Program-made: the position numbers and the translations under genes
Notes under the pieces: generated by a model
The model's input: the letters and a program-made list of their open reading frames with translations, nothing else
Database searches by the model: none
Told to the model about the DNA's origin: nothing
Source: a virus
Taxonomy: Duplodnaviria; Caudoviricetes
Virus record (IMG/VR): IMGVR_UViG_2788500073_000001
Location: 1-64,000 of that record
Length of the DNA: 64,000 bases
Reading direction: 5' to 3' (one strand)
In this document: positions 1-22,723 of the stretch, in pieces
Numbering within the stretch: the stretch's first letter is position 1
Layout: every line of letters begins with the position of its first letter

Positions 1-417
1 TTACCGGAAGGCGATATAGTAGTAGGTCTGGCCGGAGCTGTTGAGGAAGAAGGCTTCGTAGTCGTACTCCCCAGCGCCGCTGCGCACCGAAATCCCCGTA
101 TCGGTGAGGGATGCTCCCATGCTGCATCCTGCCTCCGAGAGGATGGCAAAGCCGATCTGCACCTCGGTGTACAAAGTGGGGTTCATCCGCAGCAGGGGGA
201 CGAAGTCGGTGTAGACCAAGCATATTTTGGGGCGGAACCCCAAGTCCACCGCCCGGGTGATCTTCCCATCCCCCACATAGCTGCCGCACACTGGGGTAAG
301 CTGGTGAAACGCCGCATCCAGCTTGAGGTTGTCAGCGTTGAAGTCGTCCATTTTGGGCTTGTCGGCGCCGGACCAGCTGTTAAGGGAGAGATGGGCGGTT
401 TTTTGGGAACTAGGCAT
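1..417 (-). CDS. short tail fibre / baseplate-distal protein
   Basis: Last gene of the virion operon in the window. N-terminal 'L..W...D...MDDFNADNLKLDAA' resembles a tail-fibre N-terminus; also 'GSYVGDG...LGFRPK'. Stop codon at 1-3. Confidence 0.55.
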   Translation of the reverse strand: MPSSQKTAHLSLNSWSGADKPKMDDFNADNLKLDAAFHQLTPVCGSYVGDGKITRAVDLGFRPKICLVYTDFVPLLRMNPTLYTEVQIGFAILSEAGCSMGASLTDTGISVRSGAGEYDYEAFFLNSSGQTYYYIAFR

Positions 418-1012
418 GCTGTCCCTCCTTTCCAAGTTTGTGGCCGTTGATATCAAACCATTGCCAACTGAAATCGGCCGAATCCCAGTCGATGAAGGAG
501 AGGCTGAACCCGTCGAACATCTCCCAAGTCAGAATGCCCACATCAAACTCCGCCGGGAGATGGGCAGGTAGCAGGGCCTGGATCTGCTTTTTCAGCTGCT
601 CCCAGTTTTCATACTCCAGAAGGGTGTCCACAAAGGAGATCGAAAGAGGTCCCTGTGGCGGGTTCTCGGTGATTCTCACCTTGACCCCGGCCCCGCTGAC
701 TGACTGTTCCAGCCGGGGGAGGGTGAAGTCCCCGGGCCGGATGGCCAAGCGGGCCAGCACCGTCTCCCGGCGGCTTTCCAGGGGGACTTCCAGCTGGGTG
801 GGCAACCCCAGGAGGGACTCCCACCGGCTCAGCGCTTCCCCGGAACAGCTGATGACAAAGCTGTCCTCCGCCACCCGGCGCAAGACCTCTTCCACCAAGG
901 CGAACCCCACCCCGTAGGCTTCCAGTTCCCGGCTGACAAAACTGTCGGGGGAGAGGTCATAAAGACCCATGGGGAGGAGCATCTCCCGCAGGGCCATAGC
1001 CGCCGCCCTCAT
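410..1012 (-). CDS. baseplate wedge protein, YmfQ/DUF2313 (XkdU-like)
   Basis: 'LSRWESLLGL...LESRRETVLARL' and 'LPAHL' motifs; directly follows baseplate J. Confidence 0.75.
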   Translation of the reverse strand: MRAAAMALREMLLPMGLYDLSPDSFVSRELEAYGVGFALVEEVLRRVAEDSFVISCSGEALSRWESLLGLPTQLEVPLESRRETVLARLAIRPGDFTLPRLEQSVSGAGVKVRITENPPQGPLSISFVDTLLEYENWEQLKKQIQALLPAHLPAEFDVGILTWEMFDGFSLSFIDWDSADFSWQWFDINGHKLGKEGQHA

Positions 1013-2070
1013 TGGGCGGCCCCCATTTGGGTCACGGTGATGGCCCCGGGCACCGCCACCTGCCGCGGCTCAATGGAGGTGTCCCCCGTAGGGGTGAGGA
1101 AGCGGCAGTTAGTGACAGAGGGCAGGCTATACACCCTGTGGATCATCCCGGCGAGGAGGGCGCTGCTGCCCACCCCCAGCCCCGTCAGGTATTGAGTGAG
1201 GGCTTCCTCCACCTGGGTTTTAGCCTCTTCCAGTCCGGCAGAGGTTTCAATCTCCACCGAGACAGGGACCGCCACCGCCTGGGCCGGGGTGAGGGTGACG
1301 TCCACGCTGATCTCTTTTTCAGCGGCGAACCGCTCCTTGAGGCGGTCCATCACCTCCCGGGAGGGAGCGGTCCCCCCAGCGGTGACTACCACCTCCACCG
1401 TGCCAGCGCCGGAAGGCCGGGGCAGAACTAGGGCAGAGGTGATCCCCTCTTCTTCCAAGGCAGCCTGGTGGTAGTAGGCGGCGTTGGCTCCGTTGGACAC
1501 CTCCCGGTAACTCTCCAGCAGCCGCCTGCGCAGGGATTCATCGTCCTCCGCGTCCACCCCGCCGGTGAAGGGGTCGGGGTTGCTCACCGAGGCGATACCG
1601 CTGGCCGGGGTGATCAGCACCGAGGCGGCGCCGGATGCCGCATTTCCCCCGCGTCCGGCAAGTTCTGCCTTTGCGGGGATGAGCACGCTTGTCTTCCCCT
1701 GGGGGAGAATCCCGTCCTCGGTGGTTTGGTACCGATAGGAGGGTTCTCCGTCGGTGGAGACAATCAGCCCCGCCGGAAGGGGGATGTCTTGGGGGGCCGG
1801 GGTGGCGCGGACGAACTTCAGCACCCCTTGGGCACAGGTGGCCGCCTTGCGCTGCAAGCCCCGCTGGGCGGCATGGCGGTCCAAAAACTCACCGGAACTG
1901 GTCTCAGGAAAGGCCCGGGCCTCCAGTTCTGCGGCGTAGTTGTACAAAAGCTCCAGCTGGGCGGCCAGTACCGTCATCCGGATGCCCAGGTCGGAGGCGT
2001 CGTCCGCCTCCGCGCCGGTCAATTCCCGGAAGCGGTCGGTCATGGCCGTCCGAATTTCCGTTTGGGTCAT
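1009..2070 (-). CDS. baseplate J/gp47 family protein
   Basis: 'GEFLDRHAAQRGLQRKAAT.AQG' and 'GGVDAEDDESLRRR' are baseplate J signatures. Confidence 0.9.
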   Translation of the reverse strand: MTQTEIRTAMTDRFRELTGAEADDASDLGIRMTVLAAQLELLYNYAAELEARAFPETSSGEFLDRHAAQRGLQRKAATCAQGVLKFVRATPAPQDIPLPAGLIVSTDGEPSYRYQTTEDGILPQGKTSVLIPAKAELAGRGGNAASGAASVLITPASGIASVSNPDPFTGGVDAEDDESLRRRLLESYREVSNGANAAYYHQAALEEEGITSALVLPRPSGAGTVEVVVTAGGTAPSREVMDRLKERFAAEKEISVDVTLTPAQAVAVPVSVEIETSAGLEEAKTQVEEALTQYLTGLGVGSSALLAGMIHRVYSLPSVTNCRFLTPTGDTSIEPRQVAVPGAITVTQMGAAQ

Positions 2071-2071
2071 G

Positions 2072-2422
2072 TTATAAATTCACCTCCAACAGGGTGGATG
2101 CCTCGCCCAAAGCCAGCTCCAGGGAAAGTTCGATCCGATCTTCTTCCGGGTCATAGCGGCAGGTGATCTCTCCCGCTTTTGCCCCGGCCATAGGGGCGAG
2201 GGCATCCATTACATACCCCTGGGCTGCTCGGTTCATCTGGGCGGCGGGACCCCTCTTGAGACGGTACAGTTCACTGCCCAGCTTAGGGTTGGGGGCAAAG
2301 CCCCCTTTGCGGCAGATGAGTCGAATCATCGCCCGCTGAGCTAGTTCCGCCTTCCCATCCACCGTCTGGGGCAGCCCCCGGCTGTCCAAGAGAAAATCCC
2401 CGTTGTGCAAAAGTGTGTCCAT
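2072..2422 (-). CDS. gp25-like / sheath-initiator baseplate protein
   Basis: ATG at 2422 with GGAGG RBS; 'ELAQRAMIRL...G.F...P.LGSEL' motif; lies just before baseplate J. Confidence 0.65.
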   Translation of the reverse strand: MDTLLHNGDFLLDSRGLPQTVDGKAELAQRAMIRLICRKGGFAPNPKLGSELYRLKRGPAAQMNRAAQGYVMDALAPMAGAKAGEITCRYDPEEDRIELSLELALGEASTLLEVNL

Positions 2423-2763
2423 TAGGTATCCTCCTTTTGAGGGGGGACCACTGTCCCGTCGGGTTGGATGGCCAGCCCATTGATTACCACATCCCCGGTG
2501 TTTTTCAGGTGGATATAGGCCCCGCCGCCGCTTTCCAGGATGAGCTCCCCCGGATTCAGCCCTTGGGTGGAAGCTGCGGTGCCCAGCAGGGCGTAGCCGC
2601 CCCCAAAGGGGATGAGGAAGCCCTGTTCCCCCTCCTTGGGGAAGCAGCGTAGGCCGCTGGGGCAAAAGAGGGGGAGGGTGTCGCAGCAGTCGGCAGCTGC
2701 GGTGATCTTACCTTCCGCCGAGGCGGAGATCCTCCCGGTGCAGGGGTCCAATTGGTTTGTCAT
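2422..2763 (-). CDS. putative baseplate spike (gp45/V-like), very short
   Basis: 'P.G....P..GEQG' OB-like start and 'GAYIHLKNTGDVVING' beta repeats; synteny. Confidence 0.55.
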   Translation of the reverse strand: MTNQLDPCTGRISASAEGKITAAADCCDTLPLFCPSGLRCFPKEGEQGFLIPFGGGYALLGTAASTQGLNPGELILESGGGAYIHLKNTGDVVINGLAIQPDGTVVPPQKEDT

Positions 2764-2768
2764 GGTTG

Positions 2769-3710
2769 TCATTCCTTTCGTAGATACAGCCGGGTAAAGG
2801 CCCCGCTGGCGGAGAATTCCCACCGGATCTCCACCGGGTAATATCCCATCTCCGAGCCAATGGAGTCGATGAGGTCGAACCGGTCGGCCAGGGAGAGGGG
2901 AAGAAGGTCGGGCAGCAGCGCCTCCGCCTGCCGGTAACGGTTCCAGGCGTCCATGAGCAGGCGGTCCGCCCCGGCCTGGGGGTTGTGCTGGTATTCATCG
3001 GGGGGGATCCAGTACCGTTTGCGCCGCACCCCGATCTCCTGGGCTTTTTCGCTGGAGACCGCGGAGGAGTAGTAGCCCTCCTCCCCCCGGATGCAAATTT
3101 TGGAGAGGACCCGGCTGCGCTCCCGCCGGAAGGTCAGCTTTTGGTAGGCTAAGCCCCCCTCCCCAATGGTGTACCGCCGCCCCCCGCTGGGCCGCTGGGG
3201 TTCAATGACTCCCTGGGGGGTCAGGTAGGGCCGCACCCCTAGAGCTCCCTCGCAAAACCCGCAGAAGGCCTCCCACTCGCTGGCCCCCTTGGACACCCGG
3301 TAAGAGGGGAGCCGCAGCTCCCCAAACCCGGCGATCGGGAAGCCGTAAGGGGCAATATACCGCTGGTAGACATCCTGGAGCCGGGGGGAGTCAAACCGCT
3401 GGGGAAGGGCTTGGTTGTCCAGCAGCAGCGCCCCGTCCGACCGGGCAAAGAGGGAGAGCAGTTCCCCCTTTGGGGAAGAGACCCGCTCCTCCTCATCCAC
3501 CTCCCCGATGAAGAGGATATCCCCTGGCAGCTGGGCTTTCACTTTACAAAGGGGCGGCAGGTCCTGGGGTAGGGGAAGGGTCAGCTCCAGCCCGTCCGCC
3601 GGGGAGTCCACCGCCCGGCTCAGTTGGAGGGAGACCGGCTGGGGCAGCGGGCAGGCCGTCCCGGTCTGGCTGTACCCGGTCAGCTGGATCAAATTGCTCA
3701 TTGTGGCCAC
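2769..3710 (-). CDS. baseplate hub / tail protein (XkdQ/Mu gpP-like)
   Basis: 313 aa; 'LSRAVDSPADGLELTL', 'LFIGEVDE'; located before the spike gene. Confidence 0.6.
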   Translation of the reverse strand: MATMSNLIQLTGYSQTGTACPLPQPVSLQLSRAVDSPADGLELTLPLPQDLPPLCKVKAQLPGDILFIGEVDEEERVSSPKGELLSLFARSDGALLLDNQALPQRFDSPRLQDVYQRYIAPYGFPIAGFGELRLPSYRVSKGASEWEAFCGFCEGALGVRPYLTPQGVIEPQRPSGGRRYTIGEGGLAYQKLTFRRERSRVLSKICIRGEEGYYSSAVSSEKAQEIGVRRKRYWIPPDEYQHNPQAGADRLLMDAWNRYRQAEALLPDLLPLSLADRFDLIDSIGSEMGYYPVEIRWEFSASGAFTRLYLRKE

Positions 3711-3717
3711 CGTCCTT

Positions 3718-4080
3718 TCACTGCCCTGCCTCCTCCAAAAACACCGCCGTGTAGGCGATGACCCGCCCGTCCCCGTCGGCGGTGTAGGTCAGCCGTTCAA
3801 AAAGGGCAAACAGCGCCTCGCCGGTGGGGAGGAATAAAGTCTTGACCTCCCCGCTTCCCGCCGCTTGTGCCAGGGAAGCAAGGGCTTTCCCTGTTTTCTG
3901 TGGGCTGTCGGAAAACAGTTCCCCTTTGCAGGTGATCCGCCGGCATTGGGGCCCCAGGGGCTGGATGCGTCCCCCCAGCCGGGGAAGGAATAGTTCTGCC
4001 GCCTTCTGGGCAGTCTCCACCTGGATGGTGTGGGGGTTGTGGGGGAAGAGGTAGTCCCCGAATTGCATGCGATCCATCAA
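3718..4080 (-). CDS. tail-tube initiator / DNA circularisation N-domain-like protein
   Basis: 'FPHNP..I', 'IQPLGPQCRRITCKGE' and 'LFLP' motifs; synteny. Confidence 0.5.
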   Translation of the reverse strand: MMDRMQFGDYLFPHNPHTIQVETAQKAAELFLPRLGGRIQPLGPQCRRITCKGELFSDSPQKTGKALASLAQAAGSGEVKTLFLPTGEALFALFERLTYTADGDGRVIAYTAVFLEEAGQ

Positions 4081-4358
4081 AAATCCCTCCCAAAGGGGAA
4101 GCGCAGGGCTTCCCGTTCTTGCAGTTTGGCCATCCGGTGAAGGAGGTTGTCCTCATCCTCCCAAAGGGGGGAGGCAGGGAAGGCCTCCATCTCCGCCGGT
4201 TTCCAATCGGCAACGGGTTCCCCCTCTTGGGGGAGGTTGGGCATCTGTGCCACCGCGGGGGGATCTGGCATCACCGCCGCCGGAAGGTTCTCCCGGTGGG
4301 GCGGGGTCAGCCCGGCGGCCTCTTTGTTTCGGGCGAGGGCCCGTTCCAATCCAGTCAT
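4077..4358 (-). CDS. 93-aa protein in the tape-measure gene position
   Basis: Translationally coupled ORF between the chaperone and the tube initiator. Confidence 0.45.
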   Translation of the reverse strand: MTGLERALARNKEAAGLTPPHRENLPAAVMPDPPAVAQMPNLPQEGEPVADWKPAEMEAFPASPLWEDEDNLLHRMAKLQEREALRFPFGRDF

Positions 4359-4654
4359 CTTCCCACCTCCCTGTCAAAGGATTCGTTGACGCCCCACTCC
4401 CCGCCCTCCCGCAGGAGCTGGGCATACTGGGCCAGCTCCTCCAGGGAGAAACGCTCCAGCACCTGGGCGGGGTGGGTCAGCTGAGGCTCTCCCCGCCGCA
4501 GGGAGAGGAAGACCGCCGCGCAGTTGTAAGCCACAGCCAGGGCGCCTAGGTCGTCGTCCATCTGGGCGAATAGCTGGGGGAGCACCTGGGCGGCCACCCG
4601 GCGCAATTTGAGGGCGTCGCCGGCGGTCAGGGGGGCGAAGCTGGGCCCGCTCAT
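4355..4654 (-). CDS. tail assembly chaperone
   Basis: ATG overlaps the tube stop codon (ATGA); ~99 aa, helical. Confidence 0.5.
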   Translation of the reverse strand: MSGPSFAPLTAGDALKLRRVAAQVLPQLFAQMDDDLGALAVAYNCAAVFLSLRRGEPQLTHPAQVLERFSLEELAQYAQLLREGGEWGVNESFDREVGR

Positions 4655-5034
4655 CGCAGCTCCATCCGCTTGGCAGCGGCGACGGTGACTGATTCCACCA
4701 TCACATCCCCCAAGGCGGCCGTCTCGGTGATGCCGGCCCACTCGCAGCCGGAGTAGATGATTTTCCGGTCGGGTTTGACCACTACCACGTTGAAGCCGGA
4801 GAGGTCGAAGAAGCCGATGCCATCGTCCAACCCGCCGGTCAGGCACACCCGGGAGAGCTCCAGAATGTGTTTTACCCGCCCCCCTACCGTGCCCACCGGT
4901 TCGCTGGAACCAAAGGCTTCAATGGTGCGGCTTTCCCGGGTGGACCGGGCCTTATAGCTCTGGACTACGGCCAGCTTTTTGCCGTTGATTTCAATGTAAA
5001 TATCCTTGCTTGTCGGCAGAGAACCAATTGCCAT
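4651..5034 (-). CDS. tail tube protein
   Basis: 127 aa, beta-rich, immediately after the sheath gene; GGAGG RBS. Confidence 0.7.
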   Translation of the reverse strand: MAIGSLPTSKDIYIEINGKKLAVVQSYKARSTRESRTIEAFGSSEPVGTVGGRVKHILELSRVCLTGGLDDGIGFFDLSGFNVVVVKPDRKIIYSGCEWAGITETAALGDVMVESVTVAAAKRMELR

Positions 5035-5047
5035 ACCTGTGCCTCCT

Positions 5048-6079
5048 TTACACCTGGATGCTGGCGGAGATCAAAATCTGGTTGGCGGCGTGGGCCACGG
5101 CAAAGGCCAGCTCTACCACCAGTACCGCCGGGTCGTCCGGGTGGACATACACCCGGGGCGGCTCATAGCTTTCGATAATCTCCCCATCCAGCAGCTGACC
5201 CAGTTCCACTGTCACCTGGGAGGCGATGCTCTCCCGGGTCTGGGTGGTGTTTTTCATCCCGGTGAGCCGGGATTTGAGGGCGCCCCGCACCGTTTCCATC
5301 ACGTGGTCAATAATCAGTATGGTGTTGACCGGCAGGAAGCTCAAATCCGTCTTGCCGCCGGTCTTGGTGCGGGTGGTCACCGCCCGGATGATCTCCACCC
5401 CGCCCGGCTGGGTCTCCAAGGGGGTGACCCCAGCGCCCAGCAGGGTTTCCACCTCATCCTGTCCCAGTTCCCGGGAGAGGCCCTCCGGCAGCGGGATTTC
5501 CCGTCCGGAGAACCCGGTGGAGGGGTCGCTTTCACAGAGGATTTCCCCGGCCACTGCCGCCGCGCCCAAAGGAGGGCATGCCGCACCGCCCAGGGAGGGG
5601 GCAGGGCAGACGAGGACCATCCTCTCGCTGTTCAGGGCGGAGGCCAGGGAAGAGGCGGCGGCGCTGTCGTCCACCCCGCAGAAACCCAACCGCTCCCGGC
5701 TTCCTTCGCTGGCCCGCTGGCAGCTCTCCTGCAAGGCGTCGAGGATGTCCTCCTCGGCCTTATCGCAGAGGATGCAGCCCACCTCGGCCACCGGCTCCAA
5801 GGCGGCAAAGGCGGCGGCGTACCCCTCCGCTGTATCGGTAGCTGCCGGGGAGAGGTAGACCGCGGCCACCCCCCGCCCAAACAGGAGGGAACAGGCGGCT
5901 AATGCCCAGCCTTCCAGCAGGGCGGCGGCCTCGCTGTAGCGGGAAAGGCGGGTCACCCCCTCCACCTCGGGAAAAACGCCTACCAGGGCAGCAGCCCGTT
6001 CGCTGACCGGCCGGGCGTACAGGCTGGTCACCGCATATTGGGAGTACACCCCCGGCCGTTTGGTAGCAATGGGGTTCAT
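5048..6079 (-). CDS. contractile tail sheath protein (minimal, 343 aa)
   Basis: N-terminal 'RPGVYS'; 'LLGAGVTPLE...IIRAVTT'; sheath C-terminal domain. Confidence 0.85.
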   Translation of the reverse strand: MNPIATKRPGVYSQYAVTSLYARPVSERAAALVGVFPEVEGVTRLSRYSEAAALLEGWALAACSLLFGRGVAAVYLSPAATDTAEGYAAAFAALEPVAEVGCILCDKAEEDILDALQESCQRASEGSRERLGFCGVDDSAAASSLASALNSERMVLVCPAPSLGGAACPPLGAAAVAGEILCESDPSTGFSGREIPLPEGLSRELGQDEVETLLGAGVTPLETQPGGVEIIRAVTTRTKTGGKTDLSFLPVNTILIIDHVMETVRGALKSRLTGMKNTTQTRESIASQVTVELGQLLDGEIIESYEPPRVYVHPDDPAVLVVELAFAVAHAANQILISASIQV

Positions 6080-6564
6080 TCCATCACCCTCCTCAGTTCA
6101 ATTTCATCAATGGCGAGGGAGGTCTCCCCGGCGCTGATCAAGGCGTTCATCCGCCCCTTGGCGCACAAGAGGAAGCCCCCGATGTTTTTGTCGTAAGCTA
6201 CAGGGCCACAGGTCAGCTCCTCCACCCCCAGGCTGTTGCGACGAAGGAGCAGAGCGTCGAGCAGCTCCTCGAACAGCCCTTGGCAGGCCCCACCCCCCAG
6301 GCGGACCGGGCAGGCCAGATCAAACCGCAGGGTGATTTGTACATACCGCCCCCGCAGGGTCTGGCTGCTGTCCTCCCCCAGATAGTCGTCCAGCCCTGCA
6401 TCTTGAACTGCCATAGCGTCAAACCCCACGGCAATCCGGCTTTTTAGGAGGGGAGAGGGCTTGGGCGATGGAGGAAATTCCCCCATCACCGCCACCCCTT
6501 GGCCGGAAAAATGGTCGGAGAGGTAGTCCACCAGCTGTTGTTTCAGCTCCTTCAAATCAGTCAT
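6076..6564 (-). CDS. tail terminator / neck protein
   Basis: Size and position before the sheath gene. Confidence 0.5.
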   Translation of the reverse strand: MTDLKELKQQLVDYLSDHFSGQGVAVMGEFPPSPKPSPLLKSRIAVGFDAMAVQDAGLDDYLGEDSSQTLRGRYVQITLRFDLACPVRLGGGACQGLFEELLDALLLRRNSLGVEELTCGPVAYDKNIGGFLLCAKGRMNALISAGETSLAIDEIELRRVME

Positions 6565-6889
6565 CCTGCTCCTCCTCCCGCGCCCGCTGGAGAACCGCCC
6601 ACCGGTAGAGGGCCTTGCCTTTGCCGTAAAAGTTCTCCGCCTGCTTCACAAAATAATGTTCCTCCCCAAAGCGGATAAAGTCCCCCTGCTGGGGGTAGGG
6701 GAGGGCTGGCCCATAGTAGAGGGCATGGCCTTTTTCCAGCTGCCCCAAGGCGGAGTAATCCGCCTCCAAATACAGCTTGCTCCGGTCGTGGATGGGCTGC
6801 ACCACCGCCTTTACCCGGTGCACCTCCCCTTGGTGTTCGATGGCCGTCTCCCACCCCAGGCGGGTGAGGATGGCCTCCACACCGGTCAC
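6557..6889 (-). CDS. head-closure protein
   Basis: 110 aa, beta-rich, 'QGDFIRFGEEHYFV'; synteny. Confidence 0.5.
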   Translation of the reverse strand: MTGVEAILTRLGWETAIEHQGEVHRVKAVVQPIHDRSKLYLEADYSALGQLEKGHALYYGPALPYPQQGDFIRFGEEHYFVKQAENFYGKGKALYRWAVLQRAREEEQDD

Positions 6890-7254
6890 GGTTTCACCTC
6901 AAAAAGGACTTTGGGGGAGAAGTCCGCCAGGTCGGCAAGGGAGAGGATGGCGTCGTCCCGGATGGCTCCGGCTGCCCGCAGCAGGCCGTCCCCATCGCAG
7001 GAGACCGAAAGCTCCCCCGCCTTGAGGCTGTGGCACCCCACCGCCGCCTCTAAAAGGGCGTATTTGTAATAGGCGATAGCCGCCGCCCCCTGGGTGAGCC
7101 GTTCCCCCTGCTGGGAGGGGGAAATCCCCTCCCGCAGGTGGGCCAGCAGGTCGTTCCAGGCAGAGGCGCACAGCCCCCGCCACCGTTCTTTTTCCCCCTC
7201 GTCCAAACCGGCGAGGGAGAGGAATGCCGTCAATACGGCGTCAACTTCCGACAT
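6886..7254 (-). CDS. head-tail adaptor/connector
   Basis: ATG at 7254 after the capsid gene; 'SLKAGELSVS' adaptor motif. Confidence 0.55.
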   Translation of the reverse strand: MSEVDAVLTAFLSLAGLDEGEKERWRGLCASAWNDLLAHLREGISPSQQGERLTQGAAAIAYYKYALLEAAVGCHSLKAGELSVSCDGDGLLRAAGAIRDDAILSLADLADFSPKVLFEVKP

Positions 7255-7265
7255 AGGCGCACCCC

Positions 7266-8264
7266 TTATGCAGTCAGGGTCAAGACCTTCACCGCGTCGG
7301 GGAAGATTTTGGCGAAGCCGCAGGTCTCGGTGATGGCCACCCGCTCCAGCTGGCAGTCGATCACCTTGTCGGAGTCCACGGTTACCCCGCCGCAGGAGAC
7401 CATCTCCAAAGCGCAGTTTTTGTCCATGGCGATGACTGTTCCCGCAGGTACCGCGTCGGATTTGATCAGCACCGCGCCAAAAGGGGTGAGGGCCGCGTCC
7501 GGGCCGGTGAAGGCGGCGGCACAGCCGGGCAGGTTGCACTCTGGCAGGGAGAGGATTTTGCCCGCCATGTCGGGGGAAGCCAGCAGCAGGTTCATCTCAT
7601 AGTCCTCAAAGCTTTGCCACAGCTTGAGAAGGTCGCTGTAGGCCAAGGTTCCGGAGGTGGCGCAGACGGTTTTCTCCGCCGCATCATCCCCAGTGCCGAT
7701 GAGGGCGCTCACCGCGTCTTTCAGCTTGCGCCGGGCGATGGAGTTGCCGATCTGCCGCAGGGTGACGGCGAACAGCTCCAGCCGCTGGAAGCGGATTGCC
7801 TCATAGCTGGCCGAGAGCATCCGGCCCCGCTTGTTGAGGGTCACCAGTTTATCCTTGAGGCGGATCTGGGTGGCGGGGATGGCGCCGCCCTCAGCGATGG
7901 CTTTGTCCTCATCCTCGCTGGCGGTGGAGGAGATGGAGCGGTAATCGGGGGTGTTCACCACCGTTTTGGCCGCCAGGATTAGATCCAAGGGGGAGTTTTT
8001 CATCCCCTGCTCCACTGCTCGGGTGAGGTAAGCGGGGAAGAGGAGGGCGGACTGGGGGTCCTGGAAGAATTTTTCCACCCGGTCGCCCAAGGGGCCGCTT
8101 ACTTTGATGTCGAACCGTTTCAGCTGGCGCTCCAGGGCGTCCAGGCCGCAGAGGTCGGTGCCCTCGTACCCGCGGGAGGGATCCAAGGCCTCCAGGCGGT
8201 TAAAAAAGCCCTCGCCTGTGTGGTACATGGATTTTTCCAGAACAACCGATTGATAATTGCCCAT
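7266..8264 (-). CDS. major capsid protein (HK97-fold)
   Basis: 'IAEGGAIP...VTLNKRGRMLSASYEAIR' capsid motif; AGGAGG RBS. Confidence 0.85.
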   Translation of the reverse strand: MGNYQSVVLEKSMYHTGEGFFNRLEALDPSRGYEGTDLCGLDALERQLKRFDIKVSGPLGDRVEKFFQDPQSALLFPAYLTRAVEQGMKNSPLDLILAAKTVVNTPDYRSISSTASEDEDKAIAEGGAIPATQIRLKDKLVTLNKRGRMLSASYEAIRFQRLELFAVTLRQIGNSIARRKLKDAVSALIGTGDDAAEKTVCATSGTLAYSDLLKLWQSFEDYEMNLLLASPDMAGKILSLPECNLPGCAAAFTGPDAALTPFGAVLIKSDAVPAGTVIAMDKNCALEMVSCGGVTVDSDKVIDCQLERVAITETCGFAKIFPDAVKVLTLTA

Positions 8265-8277
8265 AAAAATAGCCTCC

Positions 8278-9216
8278 TTACAGTTTAAAATGGCGGTTGG
8301 ATGTGGCTATGGTTCCCTCCGGGCGATAGAGCTGGGGCACCGGCAGGCCGGTGCCTTTTCCCAGCCCGGCCAGGAAGGATTGAAGTTCCCGGCAGGAGAG
8401 GGAAGCCGCCGCTTTTTGGGCCAGGGTCCCAGTCAGGGCCGGGTGCTGAAGCACCAGTGCCTTCTCCACCTCCCGACGCAGGGAGGAGAGGTACTCCTCC
8501 CCAGCCTGGGCAAGTGGCTCCAGCCGCTCCAGCTGGGTGAGAAGGGCTTTGGCCTCCCCGGATTTTAAAGTGACTTCCCCCAGCGCGAGCTTCTTCTTCA
8601 GCTCCCCAGGGGAGAGGGCGGTGCCGTAGGCTTTGGTTACCCCGGCTTCCCGCTGGGCGGGTACCGCCACAAAGGACCACTCATAGGCGTCGGTGGGCTC
8701 TTCCAGCAGGGTGCAGCACAGCTGGCCGCCGTACCGTTCCCCCGTTTTGTGTCCGCAGGAGCCGGCCGCTGCCCCGCAGATGGAACAGCTTTTTTTGGCC
8801 ACTGTGCAGCCAATGCTCACCTCTTTTTTGATCCCCGCGTCAATCTCCAAAATCAGGTCGGCGTTTTTCTCGCATCGGGGCAGGTAACACAGGGCCCGCA
8901 GCTGGCAGAAGGGTTCCCCGCAGCTGGTTTCCCGGCTGGCGTCCTCCACTACCTGCGTGTAAAAGATCCGGGCGGTCTGCCCCGCACCCTGGGGATTGTG
9001 GTCGAAGATGCCGGTCTTGCCCAGCATCATGGGGGCAAGGGCCTCCAAGGCGGGGCGGGTAAACCGCTCCCCATCCCGGTCCACCTCGTTGTCGCAGAGG
9101 TTGACCGCAAAGACAAACACCTCATCGGGGGAGAGTTTCCGGCGGGAGAAGCGGTTGATGGCGGCGAGTTGTTTCTCCCCGGCCGCCGCTTCGGGGAATG
9201 GGTCGATTCTATTCAT
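8278..9216 (-). CDS. putative prohead protease / scaffold
   Basis: Between portal and capsid; 'DH', 'EVSIGC', 'YEWSFVAVPAQ'; CxxC insert; coiled-coil C-terminus. Confidence 0.65.
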   Translation of the reverse strand: MNRIDPFPEAAAGEKQLAAINRFSRRKLSPDEVFVFAVNLCDNEVDRDGERFTRPALEALAPMMLGKTGIFDHNPQGAGQTARIFYTQVVEDASRETSCGEPFCQLRALCYLPRCEKNADLILEIDAGIKKEVSIGCTVAKKSCSICGAAAGSCGHKTGERYGGQLCCTLLEEPTDAYEWSFVAVPAQREAGVTKAYGTALSPGELKKKLALGEVTLKSGEAKALLTQLERLEPLAQAGEEYLSSLRREVEKALVLQHPALTGTLAQKAAASLSCRELQSFLAGLGKGTGLPVPQLYRPEGTIATSNRHFKL

Positions 9217-10357
9217 CCATAGCCTCCTTGTTTTCCCGCTCCAGCCGGTCGGCTTGAAGCTGGATCAGCCGGGTGTTGGCCAGCTCCACCTCGTCCTGCA
9301 GATTGATGCAGTCCCAGTCGATGGAGAAGGGCCGGTCCATCCCCTTTAGCAACAGATGGCTGCGGCAGACCTTCTCCACCACCGGGGTCAAGAGGGAGCG
9401 GTAATACTCCAGTTCACTGGTGAGGATGTCCGCTTGCTGGGCGCTCATCCGCTCGGTGGTGGACCAGTTGAGGCCCAATAAAAAGGGCGGGATCCCCAGT
9501 TTTGCCACCATTTGTTCCAACATCTGGCGCACCGGCACCTGGGTGTCAATCATCTGGTTGTCCGCACCGATGACCTTGACATCCACGTCGCCCACTGCCA
9601 CAAAGTCCCGGATGGAGCCGCTTTTGCCCGAATTCATGGCGTTCTGCCACTCCTTGGCGATGGAGGCGGCGATTTCCTGGGAATAGGCCCGGTCCAGGCT
9701 CCCGGCGCCGGGCTTGTAGGTGACGGCGTAACGCAGGTTGGCAATCCGTTCAAAGTTGTTGCCGATGGAGCGGAAGATTTTTAACAGGATATCGCTGACA
9801 AAAGGCAGGCCCTTTAAAAGCGAATTCCCTCGTATTTCCCCGGGGTTGGGCCGCAGGGCGGAAAACAAGATCCACTGGGGTTCCCGCACCGGTACAAGAC
9901 CCTCCTCCCCGGGGACGTAAAAGCACAGCTCCATAGGGGATTGGCCCGGTTTGACCGTCACCTGGCGGCAGGGGGCGTTGTACAGCCCCAGGACCCCTTC
10001 CTCCCCGGGGAGGATTTCCCCTACCGCCGAGCCATAGGTCAATAAGCTGTCCAGGTAGGAGGCCAAAAAGGGGGCGATGCCGGTCTGCCCGCCGGAGACT
10101 GGCACCTGGGAGAGAAACCGGCAAAGCTCCTCCCGGACGGCCTCCTCCTCACAGAGTACGGTAAACCCGCCAGTCAGCCGGACAATTTTGTCGATGGCCG
10201 CGTCGATGATGGGGACCGCTTCCCGCAGGCAGGCATACAGTTCCCCATCGCAGCCGCACAGAGGGGTGTAGTCCTCCAAGGGGCTGAATGGATGGGGGGA
10301 GCCCCGCCCGGTCTGCACCGAAAGGGCAGGCCTGCGGAATAAATTCGAAAAGCCCAA
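9209..10357 (-). CDS. portal protein
   Basis: TTG start with AGGAGGAGG RBS; follows TerL; 'LGIPPFLLG' portal motif. Confidence 0.8.
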   Translation of the reverse strand: MGFSNLFRRPALSVQTGRGSPHPFSPLEDYTPLCGCDGELYACLREAVPIIDAAIDKIVRLTGGFTVLCEEEAVREELCRFLSQVPVSGGQTGIAPFLASYLDSLLTYGSAVGEILPGEEGVLGLYNAPCRQVTVKPGQSPMELCFYVPGEEGLVPVREPQWILFSALRPNPGEIRGNSLLKGLPFVSDILLKIFRSIGNNFERIANLRYAVTYKPGAGSLDRAYSQEIAASIAKEWQNAMNSGKSGSIRDFVAVGDVDVKVIGADNQMIDTQVPVRQMLEQMVAKLGIPPFLLGLNWSTTERMSAQQADILTSELEYYRSLLTPVVEKVCRSHLLLKGMDRPFSIDWDCINLQDEVELANTRLIQLQADRLERENKEAMDE

Positions 10358-10467
10358 ACAATCCTCCTCCTTTCTCATAATTGTTTTGCCCCCCAAGGGG
10401 GCGCGCTGTTGGTTGCCGTCCCCATCCGCCCCGCCGGCGGGCGAAAAAGGGATTTTTTGGGAACAGG

Positions 10468-11709
10468 TCATCCCCGCTCCACACTCACGGCGAAGAACCC
10501 GGATTCCCCCTCCTGCATCGCCGCCATGGCGAAGTAGCGGATGTCATCCATGGCGTGGTCAAACTCCTTCACCGGCTTGTCCTGCCTCGCCCCTTCGTCC
10601 CACCGGTAGAGGGAAAACTCCCGGATGGTGTCGGCGCATTGGGGGGAGAAAAGTATTCTCCCTGCGAGAAGGGCTTCGCTCACCAGCTGGATCCCCTCCT
10701 TCACCCGGTTGTCAGCGGGTAAAACCCGGAACCGGCCGTGACGGCGGATGCAGGCTAGAAAACTGGCTGCCGAGGGGTCCACTACTACCTGCTCGATGGC
10801 CCGGTCCCCAGCCAGTTCTTCCAGGGCAGCATAAAGCTCCTCGTCGGTGCGGGTCAGGCCGTCCCGGCGGCTGTCCAGATACTGTTCCGCCAGCCGGTGC
10901 CACACCCCATCCCGCTCTCCCCACAGCCCCATGGAGCAGGGGTTTACGGTGCCGTAGTCGCAGGAGATCAGGTACCTCCGGTACTCCCCGTCCGGCTCCC
11001 GCAGGTGGCGGACAGGGTCGAACATGGGGTAGACAAGTCCTTGGGGGGCGCACCATTCCCCCAGCACATACCGCCGGTAAAACCCTCCGGAGTAAAGGCC
11101 CTCATATCGCCGGCGCACCTGGTCGGAGAGCCCCGGATTGTCCTCCATGGTGAAGTGGAGGTAGAGGATGCCCTTCTCCTCGGCTTTCTGCACCCATTCC
11201 CGGTAGAACCAGTGGCCCGGGTGGTCGGGGTTGCAGCTAAACCAGAATTTGGCCCCCTCCACCGAGCAGCGGGCCAGGGCCTGCTCCACAAAGGAGCGGG
11301 GCATCAGCACCACCTCATCCAGCAGCACCCCCGCCAGGGTGGCGCCTTGGATCAGGGCGGCGGAGCCCTCGTCCTTGCCTCCGAAGAGAAGAAACCGGTT
11401 CTGCTGGTTCCCCTGGCGGATGGTCACCAGGTTTTGGGAGGGCTGTTCCCGCACCTCCATCCCCAGCTCCCGCAGATAGGGCAGCAGGGGGAAGAGGAGA
11501 TTTCGCCGCAGCCCCCGGATCGTCCGGGCACAGATGGCGAAGTCCTCCCCTGCAAAAGAGGCCATGGCCCACAGCACAAAGGAGAGGGTGAGGCAGAAGG
11601 TCTTGCCGGAGCGGATGGCCCCGTCGCAGAGGATGCCGCTGTATCCCTCCTCCAGCCACCAGGTCAGCACCCGCAGCTGTTTGGGGGAAAAGCGGTCAAT
11701 CCTTCCCAT
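10468..11709 (-). CDS. terL: terminase large subunit (PBSX family)
   Basis: Walker A 'GAIRSGKT', Walker B 'LLDE', 'CNP..P.HW', nuclease motifs 'DYG' and 'DHAMDDIRY'. Confidence 0.93.
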   Translation of the reverse strand: MGRIDRFSPKQLRVLTWWLEEGYSGILCDGAIRSGKTFCLTLSFVLWAMASFAGEDFAICARTIRGLRRNLLFPLLPYLRELGMEVREQPSQNLVTIRQGNQQNRFLLFGGKDEGSAALIQGATLAGVLLDEVVLMPRSFVEQALARCSVEGAKFWFSCNPDHPGHWFYREWVQKAEEKGILYLHFTMEDNPGLSDQVRRRYEGLYSGGFYRRYVLGEWCAPQGLVYPMFDPVRHLREPDGEYRRYLISCDYGTVNPCSMGLWGERDGVWHRLAEQYLDSRRDGLTRTDEELYAALEELAGDRAIEQVVVDPSAASFLACIRRHGRFRVLPADNRVKEGIQLVSEALLAGRILFSPQCADTIREFSLYRWDEGARQDKPVKEFDHAMDDIRYFAMAAMQEGESGFFAVSVERG

Positions 11710-12169
11710 GGGCCTCCAGGGCCTTGGCGCTCATGAGGAGAGCCTGGTAGATGGGACTCTCCCCGGCGGGGGTTTCCTCTTTGGCGATCTCCCACAGCAG
11801 TTCTAGGGCCCGCAGCCGGTCGGCAAACTTGACCTCCACCCCGTTTTTGCCGGATTTGATCTCCGACACGCCGAACAGGTCGGGGAGATCCGCCCCTTCT
11901 GCTGTCACACCGCCTTGGGCCGAGGAGAAGATAAGCCGTAGGAGGCCGTTTTTGACAATCTCTGGAAGCAGGTCTTTGTGGGGCGCCCGCCGGATCTCCT
12001 CCCCCACCGCTTGGCGGATCTCCTCCCGGCAGAGAAGCTCGCCGGCGATGGCTGCTGCCTTTTTGCCTGGATATCCCGCCTCCAGGGCAGCTTCCCGGGG
12101 CAGCAGCAGGCGGGCGTAAGCCCCGCAGAACAACCGCTCCTTAGCGGTCAAAGGTGTTTCCAAACGCAT
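11696..12169 (-). CDS. terS: terminase small subunit
   Basis: 'LTAKERLFC..Y......AA.EAGY' and 'DRLRALELL' motifs. Confidence 0.8.
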   Translation of the reverse strand: MRLETPLTAKERLFCGAYARLLLPREAALEAGYPGKKAAAIAGELLCREEIRQAVGEEIRRAPHKDLLPEIVKNGLLRLIFSSAQGGVTAEGADLPDLFGVSEIKSGKNGVEVKFADRLRALELLWEIAKEETPAGESPIYQALLMSAKALEAHGKD

Positions 12170-12225
12170 CCCTCACAATCCATTGGTCTTTCGAGAAGGG
12201 GGAAGGGCCCTTCATCTTTCCCGCC

Positions 12226-12262
12226 AAAAGAAAAAAGAAGTTGCAAAAAAACTGCAACTTCT
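12226..12262 (-). terminator. intrinsic terminator-like hairpin ~60 nt upstream of terS
   Basis: AGAAGTTGCA-N7-TGCAACTTCT followed on the minus strand by TTTTTCTTTT. Confidence 0.55.
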
Positions 12263-12528
12263 CAAAAACATTTGAAAAACTGGCGGATTGGGGGATAGGA
12301 CGCTTGCGTTGTCCGCCGGAGGGGGAAATCCCCTGGTGTCGCCCCTTGACGAACACGGAAAATTATAGTTAAATAGAATATGTAACAATTGTTGCATGCC
12401 GGATGTGGGGGAGTTCCCCGCCGGTATCAGTCTCCCTGCAAAGAGGGAAGCGGGATGCAAAGTTTTTGCCGCGGCAGTTGTTCTTATTTTTGACGGGCGA
12501 CCCCGCCGTAAGGATGATGATACCCCCT

Positions 12529-13029
12529 ATGCCAACTTTGAACATTGTTTTGGTTGAGCCCCAAATTCCCCAGAATACCGGCAACATCGCCCGCACCTGT
12601 GCGGCCACCGGGGCCCGCCTCCACCTGGTGGGGCCGCTGGGCTTTTCCATTGACGACAAAAAACTCAAGCGGGCGGGCCTGGATTACTGGCACCTGCTAG
12701 ACATCACCTATTACGACGGCCTCTCTGACTTTTTCAGCAGGAACCAAGGGGAATTTTTTTATTTTACCACCAAAGGCCGCCATGTCTATAGCGAAGTCTC
12801 CTACCCGGACAACGCTTATATCGTCTTTGGGCGGGAGGACGCCGGCCTCCCGGAGGAGCTGCTGGTCCAAAACGAACCCACCTGTGTCCGTCTGCCTATG
12901 ATCGGGGCGGCCCGCAGTTTGAACCTGTCCAATACCGTGGCAGTGGCCACCTATGAAGCGCTGCGCCAATGGGGATACCCTGCCCTGGAATCCAAGGGGA
13001 AACTGACCAAATACCAGTGGAAGGAATAA
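12529..13029 (+). CDS. trmL: tRNA (cytidine/uridine-34 2'-O)-methyltransferase
   Basis: 'LVEPQIPQNTGNIARTCA', 'RAGLDYW', 'RSLNLSN' SPOUT motifs. Confidence 0.95.
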   Translation: MPTLNIVLVEPQIPQNTGNIARTCAATGARLHLVGPLGFSIDDKKLKRAGLDYWHLLDITYYDGLSDFFSRNQGEFFYFTTKGRHVYSEVSYPDNAYIVFGREDAGLPEELLVQNEPTCVRLPMIGAARSLNLSNTVAVATYEALRQWGYPALESKGKLTKYQWKE

Positions 13030-13036
13030 TGAAACC

Positions 13037-20265: not shown

Positions 20266-20343
20266 AACTGTTCCTCCCTTCTGATCTCGGGACAAACAAA
20301 AACTCGCCTGGCAAATCATTCAGCTGTAAAACGGGTGTGAATA

Positions 20344-22443: not shown

Positions 22444-22584
22444 ATAAGCCTCCCGTTTCAAGCCTTTGGACGCCTTTGGAATCGCAACAATGTTTTGCAA
22501 ATTTACAAAATCTAATTTTCTAAAAAAATTAAATTTTTTGGCATCCAAAACCCGTAATAAAAAGGAGAACTCCTTGTAAATACG

Positions 22585-22613
22585 ATTTTATAGCGTATTA
22601 GCAGAAATGTCAA
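22585..22613 (-). promoter_or_regulatory. sigmaA promoter (leftward arm of divergent switch)
   Basis: TTGACA-17-TAAAAT on the minus strand. Confidence 0.7.
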
Positions 22614-22723
22614 CTATTGCAAATCTCGCAATCTGTTAAATTAAAACCCTATATTCGCAAAATTATAAATATAAAATTCAACTAAAATTTTGTTATTTAA
22701 TTAAAAAACAGCCGTGTTTTCGC

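Follow-up and report, generated by a model that had tools for sequence, protein, structure and literature searches.

A probable gene transfer agent with a contractile tail, encoded by a chromosomal operon of Merdimmobilis hominis and related gut Clostridia

The window, that is, the whole analysed stretch of 64,000 nucleotides, is the beginning of an IMG/VR "provirus" record of 80,312 b. Its first 12,169 positions are occupied by 19 co-directional ORFs on the minus strand (Table 1), which mostly overlap their neighbours by 1-14 nt and are nowhere separated by more than 14 nt. These coupled genes encode TerS, TerL, portal, protease/scaffold, capsid, neck, sheath, tube, baseplate and short fibre proteins, which confirms the proposal of a first-pass annotation that an intact, tightly coupled virion gene set is contained in 12 kb. 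The predicted products are those of an HK97-type head and a PBSX/Mu-type contractile tail, with packaging by TerS, TerL and the portal protein.

Table 1. Features of the particle gene cluster and its terS-side border (window coordinates)
Feature	Position	Strand	Length	Evidence or remark
g19, short tail fibre/receptor-binding candidate	1..456	-	138 aa from probable start 417	
Mu gp48-like baseplate protein	410..1012	-	200 aa	PF10076 6.8e-14
Baseplate J	1009..2070	-	353 aa	PF04865 2.3e-50
gp46/gp25-like baseplate wedge protein	2072..2422	-	116 aa	PF07409 0.0047, under cut-off
g15, spike candidate	2422..2823	-	133 aa (longest ORF)	phrog_25991 5.8e-6 (function unknown)
Baseplate hub	2769..3710	-	313 aa	phrog_177 "baseplate hub" 7e-7
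g13, tube-fold baseplate/tube-initiator protein	3718..4080	-	120 aa	AlphaFold model, pLDDT 90.5
g12, miniature tape-measure-like protein	4077..4358	-	93 aa	Tape-measure position
g11, tail-assembly-chaperone-like	4355..4654	-	99 aa	Position after tube; conserved C-terminal region
Tail tube	4651..5034	-	127 aa	phrog_27038 4.6e-40
Tail sheath	5048..6079	-	343 aa	PF17482 2.3e-5; PF04984 3.9e-4
g8, neck or tail-terminator candidate	6076..6564	-	162 aa	phrog_25177 8e-5 (function unknown)
g7, neck/connector candidate	6557..6889	-	110 aa	Position
g6, neck/connector candidate	6886..7251	-	121 aa	Position only
Major capsid protein	7266..8264	-	332 aa	PF25209 2.5e-16
Prohead protease/scaffold-like protein	8278..9216	-	312 aa	phrog_16951 8.3e-92 (function unnamed)
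Portal	9209..10471	-	420 aa (longest ORF)	PF04860 2.8e-8
terL, large terminase	10468..11709	-	413 aa	PF03237 2.8e-13; also PF04466
terS, small terminase	11696..12169	-	157 aa	PF03592 7.6e-13; N-terminal HTH-type region
Conserved palindrome/terminator-like hairpin	12235..12263	-		66 nt upstream of terS
trmL (SpoU methylase), host gene outside the element	12403..13029	+		PF00588 1.8e-34

Positions 1-3 of the window are the stop codon of g19, the last gene of the cluster. Since the window opens the provirus record, its left edge is set by the record and does not mark the end of a contig. A near-identical contig of Merdimmobilis hominis NSJ-153 continues past this gene with a bidirectional terminator hairpin and then with genes for an ECF S component, a pyridoxal/HMP-kinase-family protein, TrkH and a NUDIX protein. 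These left neighbours are host genes, and therefore the element is limited to 12.1 kb and lacks lysis, integrase, repressor and replication genes. On the terS side lie trmL and the genes for DegV, PGK, TIM and iPGM, and no flanking direct repeats were found around the cluster on the NSJ-153 contig. Thus the earlier claim of a cluster embedded in housekeeping DNA, free of replication, repressor, integrase and att-like sequences, is supported on both sides, but the suggestion that lysis genes could lie to the left is not borne out, and none were found in the cluster or beside it. The distance between terS and trmL, previously given as about 360 bp, is 233 bp to the longest trmL ORF or about 345 bp to a later Met codon; the latter is judged the likelier start, since the long ORF resembles SpoU in Pfam only from residue 46 onwards. 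The hairpin upstream of terS consists of a 12-bp stem followed by a T run and matches no Rfam family. Its TTGC...GCAA core with a T-rich stretch was found by regular expression and by eye in the window and in 12 of 18 other loci inspected, and the alignment of this leader element comprises these 13 loci, window included.

The TerS match covers positions 1-127 of the 141 in the PF03592 profile, and the N-terminal motif of the protein is absent in five of 17 readable orthologues. TerL is 55-64% identical to its counterparts in relatives and at most 49% to those of cultured phages; for the portal protein, identity to relatives is 50-57%, and its PF04860 match (33.8 bits) is under the Pfam cut-off of 39.1. 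Across 63% of its length, the protease/scaffold-like protein shares 43% identity with the "major head and protease protein" of Flavonifractor phage Cormatin. The capsid alignment (A5) has a mean column identity of 65%. Neither g6 nor g7 has a match in Pfam or PHROG, and g7 orthologues are present in several loci.

Among the tail proteins, the sheath shows 32-33% identity to Mu-like sheaths across about 30% of the protein, and both its Pfam matches are under the curated cut-offs; the tube alignment (A1) has a mean column identity of 67%. The g11 gene is missing from some loci, and its product has no family match in Pfam or PHROG. The interval between tube and hub contains no tape measure of normal size: it spans 940 bp with three ORFs of 99, 93 and 120 aa, and is 528-1708 bp long in every locus where it could be measured. 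The gene list given by the first-pass annotation conceals this absence. The middle of the three ORFs, g12, has its own RBS and an ATGA stop-start overlap. Its orthologues have conserved N- and C-terminal motifs around a low-complexity middle of variable length, and measure 73-187 aa, or 260 aa in one locus (L050). Tail length is about 0.15 nm per tape-measure residue, and by this rule the 93-aa version would give an estimated tail of roughly 15-30 nm.

The structural model of g13 was matched by Foldseek to baseplate chains of phiCD508, diffocin, Mu and pyocin R2 (E 1e-6 to 7e-5, TMq 0.66-0.77). The tube-fold chains of phiCD508 and diffocin (PDB 9g8s, 9gb2, 8v3w; E 1.3e-6 to 3.9e-6, TMq 0.71-0.77) are only 10-16% identical to g13 in sequence; unlike the element in the window, diffocin has no head and phiCD508 is a complete phage. 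The g13 orthologue in locus L035 carries a LysM domain (Pfam). Similar C-terminal extensions were seen by eye in the orthologues of L044, L051 and L054. The spike role of g15 is suggested by its position between the hub and the gp25-like gene, whose product is 36-59% identical to those of relatives. The fibre candidate g19 has an N-terminal motif conserved in 16 orthologues; its model (pLDDT 84.7) has no PDB match at E<=1e-3, and a "tail fiber protein" is its top hit in BFVD (E 3.4e-5, TMq 0.43).

PBSX of Bacillus subtilis is a Gram-positive defective element with a head, a terminase and a contractile tail, which occupies about 28 kb. It encodes a repressor and a sigma-like activator of its own as well as a holin and a lysin, and its tape measure exceeds 1000 aa. 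The tail genes of the window follow the PBSX order xkdK-M-N-O-P-Q-R-S-T-U-V, the nearest cultured relatives of its baseplate J include XkdT-type proteins (25-35% identity), and the LysM domain and the look-alike extensions of g13 orthologues occur in the protein at the XkdP position. The tail gene order, the relatives of the J protein and the fold that g13 shares with diffocin, pyocin and phiCD508 baseplate proteins would fit a PBSX-like killer particle, defective and packaging host DNA incidentally, whose tail contraction kills competitors as a bacteriocin instead of delivering DNA. However, a bacteriocin needs no terminase, portal or capsid, and in this cluster TerL, portal and capsid rank with the most strongly conserved proteins. 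The fibre is 35-44% identical across genera, which is unusual for a weapon against varying competitors. Furthermore, unlike in PBSX, no repressor, activator, holin or lysin gene adjoins the cluster. We consider a killer particle rather unlikely. The protein in the tape-measure position, with 73-260 aa, is another difference from PBSX.

The cluster is conserved, single-copy and intact in many species of the host's family. The tube gene was found in 64 of 401 family genomes, always in a single copy, and the capsid gene in 172 of 401 (single copy in 169); the sheath gene was detected in 29 of 201 genomes, and at the order level the capsid gene in 34 of 301. Internal stops are absent from all 64 tube matches and from 149 of 150 capsid matches among those listed. 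Complete loci span about 11-16 kb, and collinearity was observed in all 20 loci of the first set and in 39 of 40 further ones. No integrase, replication, primase or regulator genes were found within 60 loci searched with the window's proteins. Comparison of the window strain with NSJ-153 (47 synonymous and 31 non-synonymous differences) gives a within-species pN/pS of 0.22, indicating purifying selection. A decaying cryptic prophage remnant without function would account for the absence of replication, lysogeny and lysis genes and of a normal tape measure, but it is hard to reconcile with a gene set that recurs, unchanged in order and size, in about 60 species whose proteins are 25-68% identical, with intact reading frames under such selection and with the column identities of 65-67% in tube and capsid. 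This reading, already disfavoured, is very improbable.

Positions 1-12000 have a GC content of 0.60-0.67, against 0.53-0.64 for the core genes next to them and 0.41-0.55 for 18-64 kb; the cluster, described earlier as at least equal to the flanking core genes, is in fact clearly higher. Across loci, with values from 0.26 to 0.71, cluster GC varies together with that of the host pgk operon (r 0.96, n=20), which it exceeds by 3.6 points, and with that of the flanks (r 0.94, n=50). The composition of the cluster is thus ameliorated to that of its host.

In 12 of 61 loci (window included) terS adjoins trmL. The same site is empty, with gaps of about 35-830 bp, in five of 20 tube-negative relatives examined, and occupied and empty sites are interleaved on the Pgk tree. 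The nearest relatives by Pgk lack the tube gene, which has a patchy distribution and occurs in 16% of family genomes. Distances for the cluster are correlated with those for the host (Mantel r 0.55, reached in 0 of 5000 permutations), and four of 17 splits are common to both trees (0.22 expected). Nevertheless, topology tests reject co-divergence with pgk-tpi-gpmI: delta lnL against that tree is 247 for the head and 222 for the tail (10,000 replicates), and 422 for the whole cluster (1000 replicates, flagged by the program as too few), whereas the head-versus-tail control gives only 63 and 101. Vertical inheritance, as originally claimed, is thus supported in part: shallow clades and pairwise distances agree with the host, but the patchy presence (64/401), the interleaved empty sites and the rejected three-gene host tree speak against it.

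The interleaved sites and the rejected host tree would fit a helper-dependent or recombination-borne mobile element which, instead of being an ancestral host locus, moves horizontally among related species and inserts into the ecfS/pdxK-trmL spacer and elsewhere. Within-species pS is also 0.015 in the cluster as against 0.006 in the flank and peaks locally at 0.11 in gp48, which suggests imported segments. Finally, of 20 neighbour ORFs scanned beside 11 other loci, 18 belong to ordinary cellular Pfam families or have no match, and the rest, an integrase gene and one for an S24 peptidase (repressor-like), lie at a single locus, L041. At this locus, however, the low-GC flanks (0.46), and not the cluster (0.63), are foreign to the genome (pgk operon 0.59). 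The GC match to the host core operon argues against recent arrival, and the lack of mobility genes within the 60 loci searched, the lack of att repeats and the single copy in 64 of 64 genomes also speak against such an element, which we regard as unlikely.

A gene transfer agent of Faecalibacterium prausnitzii, FpGTA, has been described in related gut Clostridia (Borodovich et al., Nat Commun 2026, PMC12946183). That account describes GTA-like packaging, with fragments of 4.6-8.9 kb, as a prominent feature of Ruminococcaceae and Oscillospiraceae, identifies a gene cluster for it in Faecalibacterium only, and raises the possibility of a killer particle for FpGTA as well. As published, FpGTA resembles the window cluster in being a chromosomal operon with TerS, TerL, portal, scaffold and capsid genes and without replication genes, and its portal and capsid accession numbers, two apart, fit the portal-X-capsid order. 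Tube-negative loci with the window's capsid family were found in the host's family; these, one of them (L100; about 7.9 kb, 11-12 ORFs) examined in full, resemble the 10-ORF operon I described for FpGTA. In contrast, FpGTA is described as podovirus-like, without sheath or tube, and as split in two operons, the second with baseplate, fibre, holin and endolysin genes, whereas in the window a single operon encodes the full contractile tail, and its neighbourhood is free of lysis genes. The window operon may be best read as a contractile-tailed counterpart of FpGTA.

A further parallel is found in Alphaproteobacteria. RcGTA, a conserved chromosomal head-tail cluster, measures about 14 kb and has neither replication nor integration genes; its lysis functions are encoded elsewhere, its GC content is above the host average, its TerS has no DNA-binding domain, its tail is non-contractile and its inheritance is largely congruent with the species tree. 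The window cluster is similar in its chromosomal conservation, in lacking replication and integration genes and in its GC excess, and the loss of the TerS N-terminal motif in some orthologues recalls the RcGTA protein. It differs in its contractile tail, in its unrelated protein lineage and in the rejection of strict congruence with the host tree.

A complete set of particle genes without replication, integration or lysis functions, situated amid housekeeping genes and conserved in many related species, points to a gene transfer agent, probably of a new, contractile-tailed kind known here from its genes. With a probability of about 0.6, we interpret the cluster as a domesticated, long-resident and selected GTA-like or PBSX-like particle operon ("viriform") of Merdimmobilis hominis and related gut Clostridia. 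We propose that a host signal would induce transcription from the trmL-terS spacer through the palindromic leader element, which could serve as an antitermination site or operator. The terminase would load small heads with cellular DNA, and the tape-measure-like protein would set an unusually short contractile tail. Release of the particles would depend on lysis functions from outside the cluster, and binding to kin cells on the short fibre. The element, presumably unable to copy or integrate itself, would for this reason persist as a host gene cluster.

Finally, among 50,697 phage records only two matched the tube and seven the capsid, with no close homologue of either protein in cultured phages. 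Unverified faecal virome scaffolds account for both tube matches and for five of those to the capsid, and a Caulobacter phage (27%) for the remaining two. The virome scaffold MT835508 turned out to be bacterial chromosome.

The particle cluster at the left end of the window consists of 19 minus-strand ORFs, from terS to the short-fibre candidate g19, with a largest gap of 14 nt and stop and start codons that mostly overlap; the family assignments and coordinates are collected in the table. Its GC content is 0.60-0.67, compared with 0.53-0.64 in the next five genes (trmL, DegV, PGK, TIM and iPGM, the right-hand neighbours) and with 0.41-0.55 in the DNA past 18 kb. The window makes up the first 64 kb of a longer IMG/VR 'provirus' record (80 kb), and its position 1 falls on the stop codon that ends g19. 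The left border was read from Merdimmobilis hominis NSJ-153, the single locus in a scan of species-representative genomes with a J protein 100% identical to that of the window. On its 704-kb contig, a bidirectional terminator hairpin directly follows the last gene of the cluster, and beyond the hairpin lie genes for an ECF S component, a pyridoxal/HMP-kinase-family protein, TrkH and a NUDIX protein, all convergent with the cluster. Since host genes stand directly beyond the last gene, the element is 12.1 kb long and has housekeeping genes at both borders.

Coordinates and family assignments of the features discussed in the text (window positions unless a locus is named)
Feature	Location	Match or content
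Particle cluster	1-12169 (-)	
TerS		PF03592
TerL		PF03237 and PF04466
Portal		PF04860, below cut-off
Protease/scaffold		phrog_16951, 8e-92 (PHROGs)
Capsid		PF25209
Sheath		PF17482 and PF04984, both below cut-off
Tube		phrog_27038, 5e-40 (PHROGs)
Hub		phrog_177 (PHROGs)
gp46/gp25-like protein		match below cut-off
Baseplate J		PF04865, 2.3e-50
Mu gp48-like protein	410-1012	PF10076
17-nt word, inner copy	~7120-7136	
17-nt word, terS leader copy	~12324-12340	
17-nt word in L099	9687 and 14891	
Separate integrative element	18553-46329	
Integrase of the separate element	18553-20319	tyrosine integrase, 588 aa
Relative of the cluster in L002 (MT835508.1)	20819-27705	head-only, 6.9 kb
Genes upstream of terS in L041	17889-19797	tyrosine integrase and S24 (LexA/CI-type) peptidase
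Truncated integrase in L004	17170-17637	C-terminal catalytic part, 155 aa

Genes for lysis, integration, repression or replication were found neither in nor beside the cluster, in the window or in the NSJ-153 flanks, and no direct repeats bracketing it were found. The first-pass annotation had described a virion operon without replication, integration or lysogeny functions amid housekeeping DNA, and this description is confirmed by the family searches, the borders and the collinear loci found across the family. Its suggestion that lysis genes could lie left of the window failed, as the NSJ-153 left flank carries the ECF, kinase, TrkH and NUDIX genes instead, and the integrase and replication genes that would have marked a prophage are likewise absent from that flank.

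The distribution of the cluster was surveyed in genomes of the family of NSJ-153. The sheath protein has a match in 29 of 201 genomes, the tube profile in 64 of 401 (one copy each, no internal stops) and the capsid profile in 172 of 401, in 169 of them as a single copy, with one internal TGA among the 150 capsid matches listed. At the order level, the capsid was found in 34 of 301 genomes. We retrieved 20 of the 28 non-self sheath loci and 40 of the 43 remaining tube loci, omitting three because of a contig-edge position or weak, partial matches. Collinearity with the window holds for every one of the first 20 and for 39 of the 40 others, at 25-68% protein identity, and complete loci span ~11-16 kb. 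Synteny across the family thus holds for 59 of 60 loci, and the tube and capsid genes are almost always in single copy.

The loci differ in the tail. Seven with a weak tube match have no match to sheath, J, gp48 or fibre. Two of these sheathless variants, L153 (genome G064) and L156 (genome G034), lie at trmL just as the contractile type does, which points to remodelling of the tail in place. About 108 of the 172 genomes with a capsid match owe it to tube-negative loci; most of the 20 retrieved (L100-L119) have the genes from terS to capsid, with a hub match in 11, a match to the g13 baseplate protein in six, and host genes next to them. The one fully read, L100, is ~7.9 kb long, and a more distant group has the gene order portal-capsid-protease. 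The head module is therefore common to at least three tail architectures, and its combination with a full contractile, a sheathless or a near-absent tail portrays a domesticated virus under remodelling, in at least two genomes at one site.

The contractile type itself has an unusual tail. The tube-hub interval of the window is 940 bp long and holds ORFs of 99, 93 and 120 aa; it measures 664-1619 bp in the first 21 loci and 528-1708 bp in 36 of the 40 further loci, and a tape measure of normal length is absent between tube and hub in every locus where the interval could be measured. Comparison of orthologues resolved the interval into three proteins, namely a chaperone-like protein (g11) missing in some lineages, a tape-measure-like protein (g12) and g13. 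The tape-measure-like protein has conserved N- and C-terminal motifs and a low-complexity middle that varies in length (73-187 aa in total, 260 aa in the relative L050), and this variable middle between conserved ends is therefore read as tape-measure behaviour. In L050, the 260-aa ORF right after the tube is enlarged by an internal tandem duplication of ~35 residues, a natural length variant. We considered that g11 and g12 might form a chaperone pair produced by programmed frameshift, which would leave no tape measure; g12 is more probably a separate protein, since it starts from an ATG and a Shine-Dalgarno sequence of its own, and no slippery heptamer was seen by eye. Tail length scales with tape-measure length, and a 93-aa ruler would give a tail of just a few tube rings. 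A tape-measure-like protein of 73-260 aa thus predicts an unusually short contractile tail, which would make the particle of structural interest.

The sequence-profile search of the PDB returned nothing meaningful for g13, whose fold was found after modelling only. Its model (pLDDT 90.5) resembles the tube-fold chains in the baseplates of phiCD508, diffocin, Mu and pyocin R2, with E-values of 1e-6 to 7e-5 and TMq of 0.66-0.77, in agreement with a tube-fold baseplate or tube-initiator protein. The g13 orthologue of the relative L035 carries a LysM domain (Pfam), and like C-terminal extensions were seen by eye in L044, L051 and L054. The last gene product, g19, has an N-terminal motif conserved among orthologues; its model has no match to the PDB by fold at E<=1e-3 and a weak likeness to viral tail-fibre models.

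The cluster adjoins trmL in 12 of 61 loci, the window included, and six loci show the kinase side as well as the trmL side. Elsewhere its neighbours are again mostly cellular: among 20 neighbour ORFs scanned at the 11 non-trmL loci of the first set, 18 belong to ordinary cellular Pfam families or have no match. These cellular neighbours include RnfB-like ferredoxin, GerA, glutamine synthetase III, AzlC, PduL and alanine racemase, as well as a cysteine-synthase-type PALP protein, SerRS, FtsK and PstS. Mobile-element neighbours were seen at only one of the 11 inspected loci, L041, where an integrase and a peptidase gene lie directly upstream of terS. There the flanks, not the cluster, look foreign, since their GC content is 0.46, against 59% for the pgk operon and 63% for the cluster. 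A truncated integrase was observed in another relative, L004, 5 kb past the fibre end and beyond four host genes. Empty sites also exist: kinase, ECF and trmL genes are contiguous, with gaps of ~35-830 bp, in five of the 20 tube-negative genomes nearest by Pgk, and in a Pgk tree of 40 genomes the occupied, relocated and empty states are interleaved.

The GC content of the cluster tracks that of the host over a range of 0.26-0.71 (flanks, r 0.94, n=50; pgk operon, r 0.96, n=20). In 45 of 50 loci the cluster is richer in GC than its flanks, with an average excess of 4.4 points. The cluster sequences of the window strain and NSJ-153 differ by 47 synonymous and 31 non-synonymous changes (pN/pS 0.22), compared with seven and none in five flanking host genes, so that selection on the cluster is purifying. 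The gp48-like gene, with a synonymous divergence of 0.11 against 0.015 cluster-wide in the same pair of strains, looks like a recombined segment.

The trees of 20 carriers were built with FastTree from nine cluster proteins (2967 columns) and from the host proteins Pgk, Tpi and GpmI (1199 columns). They have four of 17 splits in common, compared with 0.22 expected and with two of 5000 label permutations reaching four, and the patristic distances are correlated (Mantel r 0.55, reached by none of 5000 permutations). The deep nodes are weak, as only six of 17 splits are shared between the head half of the cluster and the tail half. The host topology was rejected for the whole cluster (delta lnL 422; 1000 replicates, which the program warns are too few) and for the head and tail alignments (delta lnL 247 and 222; 10,000 replicates), while the head-versus-tail controls gave delta lnL of 63 (p-AU 0.02) and 101 (p-AU 1e-4). 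The shared splits and the correlated distances speak for vertical inheritance, as proposed initially; the rejected three-gene topology and the interleaved occupied and empty sites speak against it. Presence is patchy (tube in 64 of 401 genomes); integrase and replication genes are absent beside the cluster in the window and in NSJ-153. Strictly vertical inheritance is not supported; in our reading, for which three glycolytic genes are a thin species-tree proxy, these patterns suggest long residence, with vertical descent within genus-level clades, losses and some exchange between lineages.

Among known systems, gene transfer agents (GTAs, classed as viriforms) keep phage-like genes for the head, the tail and packaging but none for replication, integration or lysogeny, and the cluster is alike; it is also alike in being a host locus kept in related genomes under purifying selection. 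A GTA particle further packs quasi-random host DNA, in pieces shorter than its own gene cluster, and delivers it to recipient cells, as the particle of this cluster may do. An intact temperate prophage would have integrase, repressor, replication and lysis modules and att repeats, all of which the cluster is without. Satellites of the cf-PICI type carry an integrase, replication or primase genes and regulators and use helper tails, whereas the cluster has no such genes and a full tail set of its own. Tailocins and extracellular contractile injection systems have no capsid or terminase, while here terminase, portal, protease and capsid are conserved. The closest rival is a role like that of PBSX, in which the particle may kill instead of donating DNA. 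The tail genes follow the xkdK...xkdV order of the PBSX contractile tail module, and XkdT-type proteins, at 25-35% identity, are among the nearest cultured relatives of J; the fold of g13 and the LysM domain in L035 likewise match a tail module of this kind. On the other hand, PBSX has its own repressor and activator, a holin-lysin cassette and a long tape measure, none of which occurs in or beside the cluster. A GTA-type particle is the best available reading of this gene content, by which the element would be a selected, long-resident and self-contained particle operon, unable to propagate itself.

The GTA-type reading can be set beside work on faecal viromes, which lists 63 packaging events and includes proteomics (Borodovich et al., PMC12946183). 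GTA-like packaging of 4.6-8.9 kb fragments is described there in Ruminococcaceae, Oscillospiraceae and Christensenellaceae; it is reported to be the most frequent kind of host DNA carried in capsids in human faecal viromes and to be concentrated in the first two families (PMC12946183). A gene cluster was found there for Faecalibacterium only and in none of the other MAGs searched, and no homologue of it was detected in reference genomes of Gemmiger and Subdoligranulum (PMC12946183). The MAGs with such packaging but no FpGTA belong to Gemmiger, Onthomonas, CAG-115, R. callidus and Christensenellaceae (PMC12946183). The Faecalibacterium agent, FpGTA, has two operons and 40-nm particles that look tail-less (PMC12946183). 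Our cluster is alike in having a TerS-TerL-portal-scaffold-capsid operon in a gut clostridial chromosome, but it encodes sheath and tube in one operon with the rest of the tail, in contrast to the podovirus-like short tail and second operon with fibre and lysis genes of FpGTA (PMC12946183). The tube-negative loci L100-L119 resemble FpGTA operon I. No Faecalibacterium name occurs among the 120 capsid relatives listed, down to 53% identity. Other GTA candidates, of different gene content, are given in a mouse transductomics preprint (10.64898/2026.07.08.737213), and in the literature searched we found no description of a contractile-tailed GTA-like element in these taxa.

Taken jointly, and with a probability of roughly 0.4, the cluster would be an anciently domesticated contractile-tailed GTA with a miniature tape measure, spread across a major Clostridia family of the human gut; its head module would be common to shorter tail-poor variants, plausibly including FpGTA, in ~43% of the species of the family, and it would be the machine behind GTA-like packaging of chromosomal DNA in those gut Ruminococcaceae and Oscillospiraceae that are without FpGTA. 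The 19-gene, ~12-kb cluster offers a concrete, searchable candidate GTA locus for genera beyond Faecalibacterium, and the question is open to direct experiment, as the carrier NSJ-153 is cultured and sequenced.

Among 50,697 phage records, the tube has two matches and the capsid seven, none of them a close relative in a cultured phage: the tube matches and five of those to the capsid come from unverified faecal virome scaffolds, and the remaining two capsid matches are to Caulobacter phage Seuss, at 27%. One such scaffold, MT835508.1 (L002; 'Bacteriophage sp.'), is bacterial chromosome encoding SecY, RpoA, RnfC, MCRA, ApbE and ABC transporters around a relative of the cluster; MT835769 (L055) is of the contractile type, and MT835952 (L056) and MT836604 (L057) are of the sheathless type. 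As a caution, several 'phage' or 'provirus' records in GenBank and IMG/VR built on this cluster represent bacterial chromosome rather than viruses. In the window itself, a separate integrative element adjoins gpmI, with five host genes between the cluster and the tyrosine integrase that heads it. It also encodes a ParM/Alp-like actin, DUF5131, a beta-clamp-like protein, a 1688-aa SNF2/ResIII helicase, a PD-(D/E)XK protein and a VWA and AAA_5 pair, and probably explains the call of a single 80-kb 'provirus' by IMG/VR. A neighbouring prophage supplying the missing functions of the cluster was considered and rejected, since the 18.5-46 kb part of the window contains no virion or lysis family.

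Finally, we inspected the leader region of the operon. The terS gene is preceded, at a distance of 66 nt, by a hairpin with a 12-bp stem and a T run after it, and a TTGC...GCAA palindrome with a T-rich stretch is found by regular expression and by eye at the equivalent position in the window and in 12 of 18 other loci inspected; the alignment of these 13 sequences reveals compensatory changes at three outer pairs. We infer a candidate leader terminator or operator, because the palindrome accompanies the operon at different chromosomal sites. There was no sign of a wider palindrome regulon: the pattern has four sites in the NSJ-153 genome, compared with one for the reversed control, and the three other sites adjoin no phage-like or lysis genes. 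No Rfam family was detected at the leader or in window positions 1-13200, where the sole hit, DUF3800-XI (E 0.32), is at chance level. The N-terminal HTH-type motif of TerS is missing in five of 17 readable orthologues (L039, L041, L045, L047 and L050) and kept in the other 12; its loss appears to have occurred more than once and fits a less stringent choice of sequence in packaging. A GC-rich, self-complementary word of 17 nt is exactly repeated, once inside the cluster and once in the terS leader; it is likewise present at two positions in L099, and its inner copy overlaps the chance-level Rfam hit.
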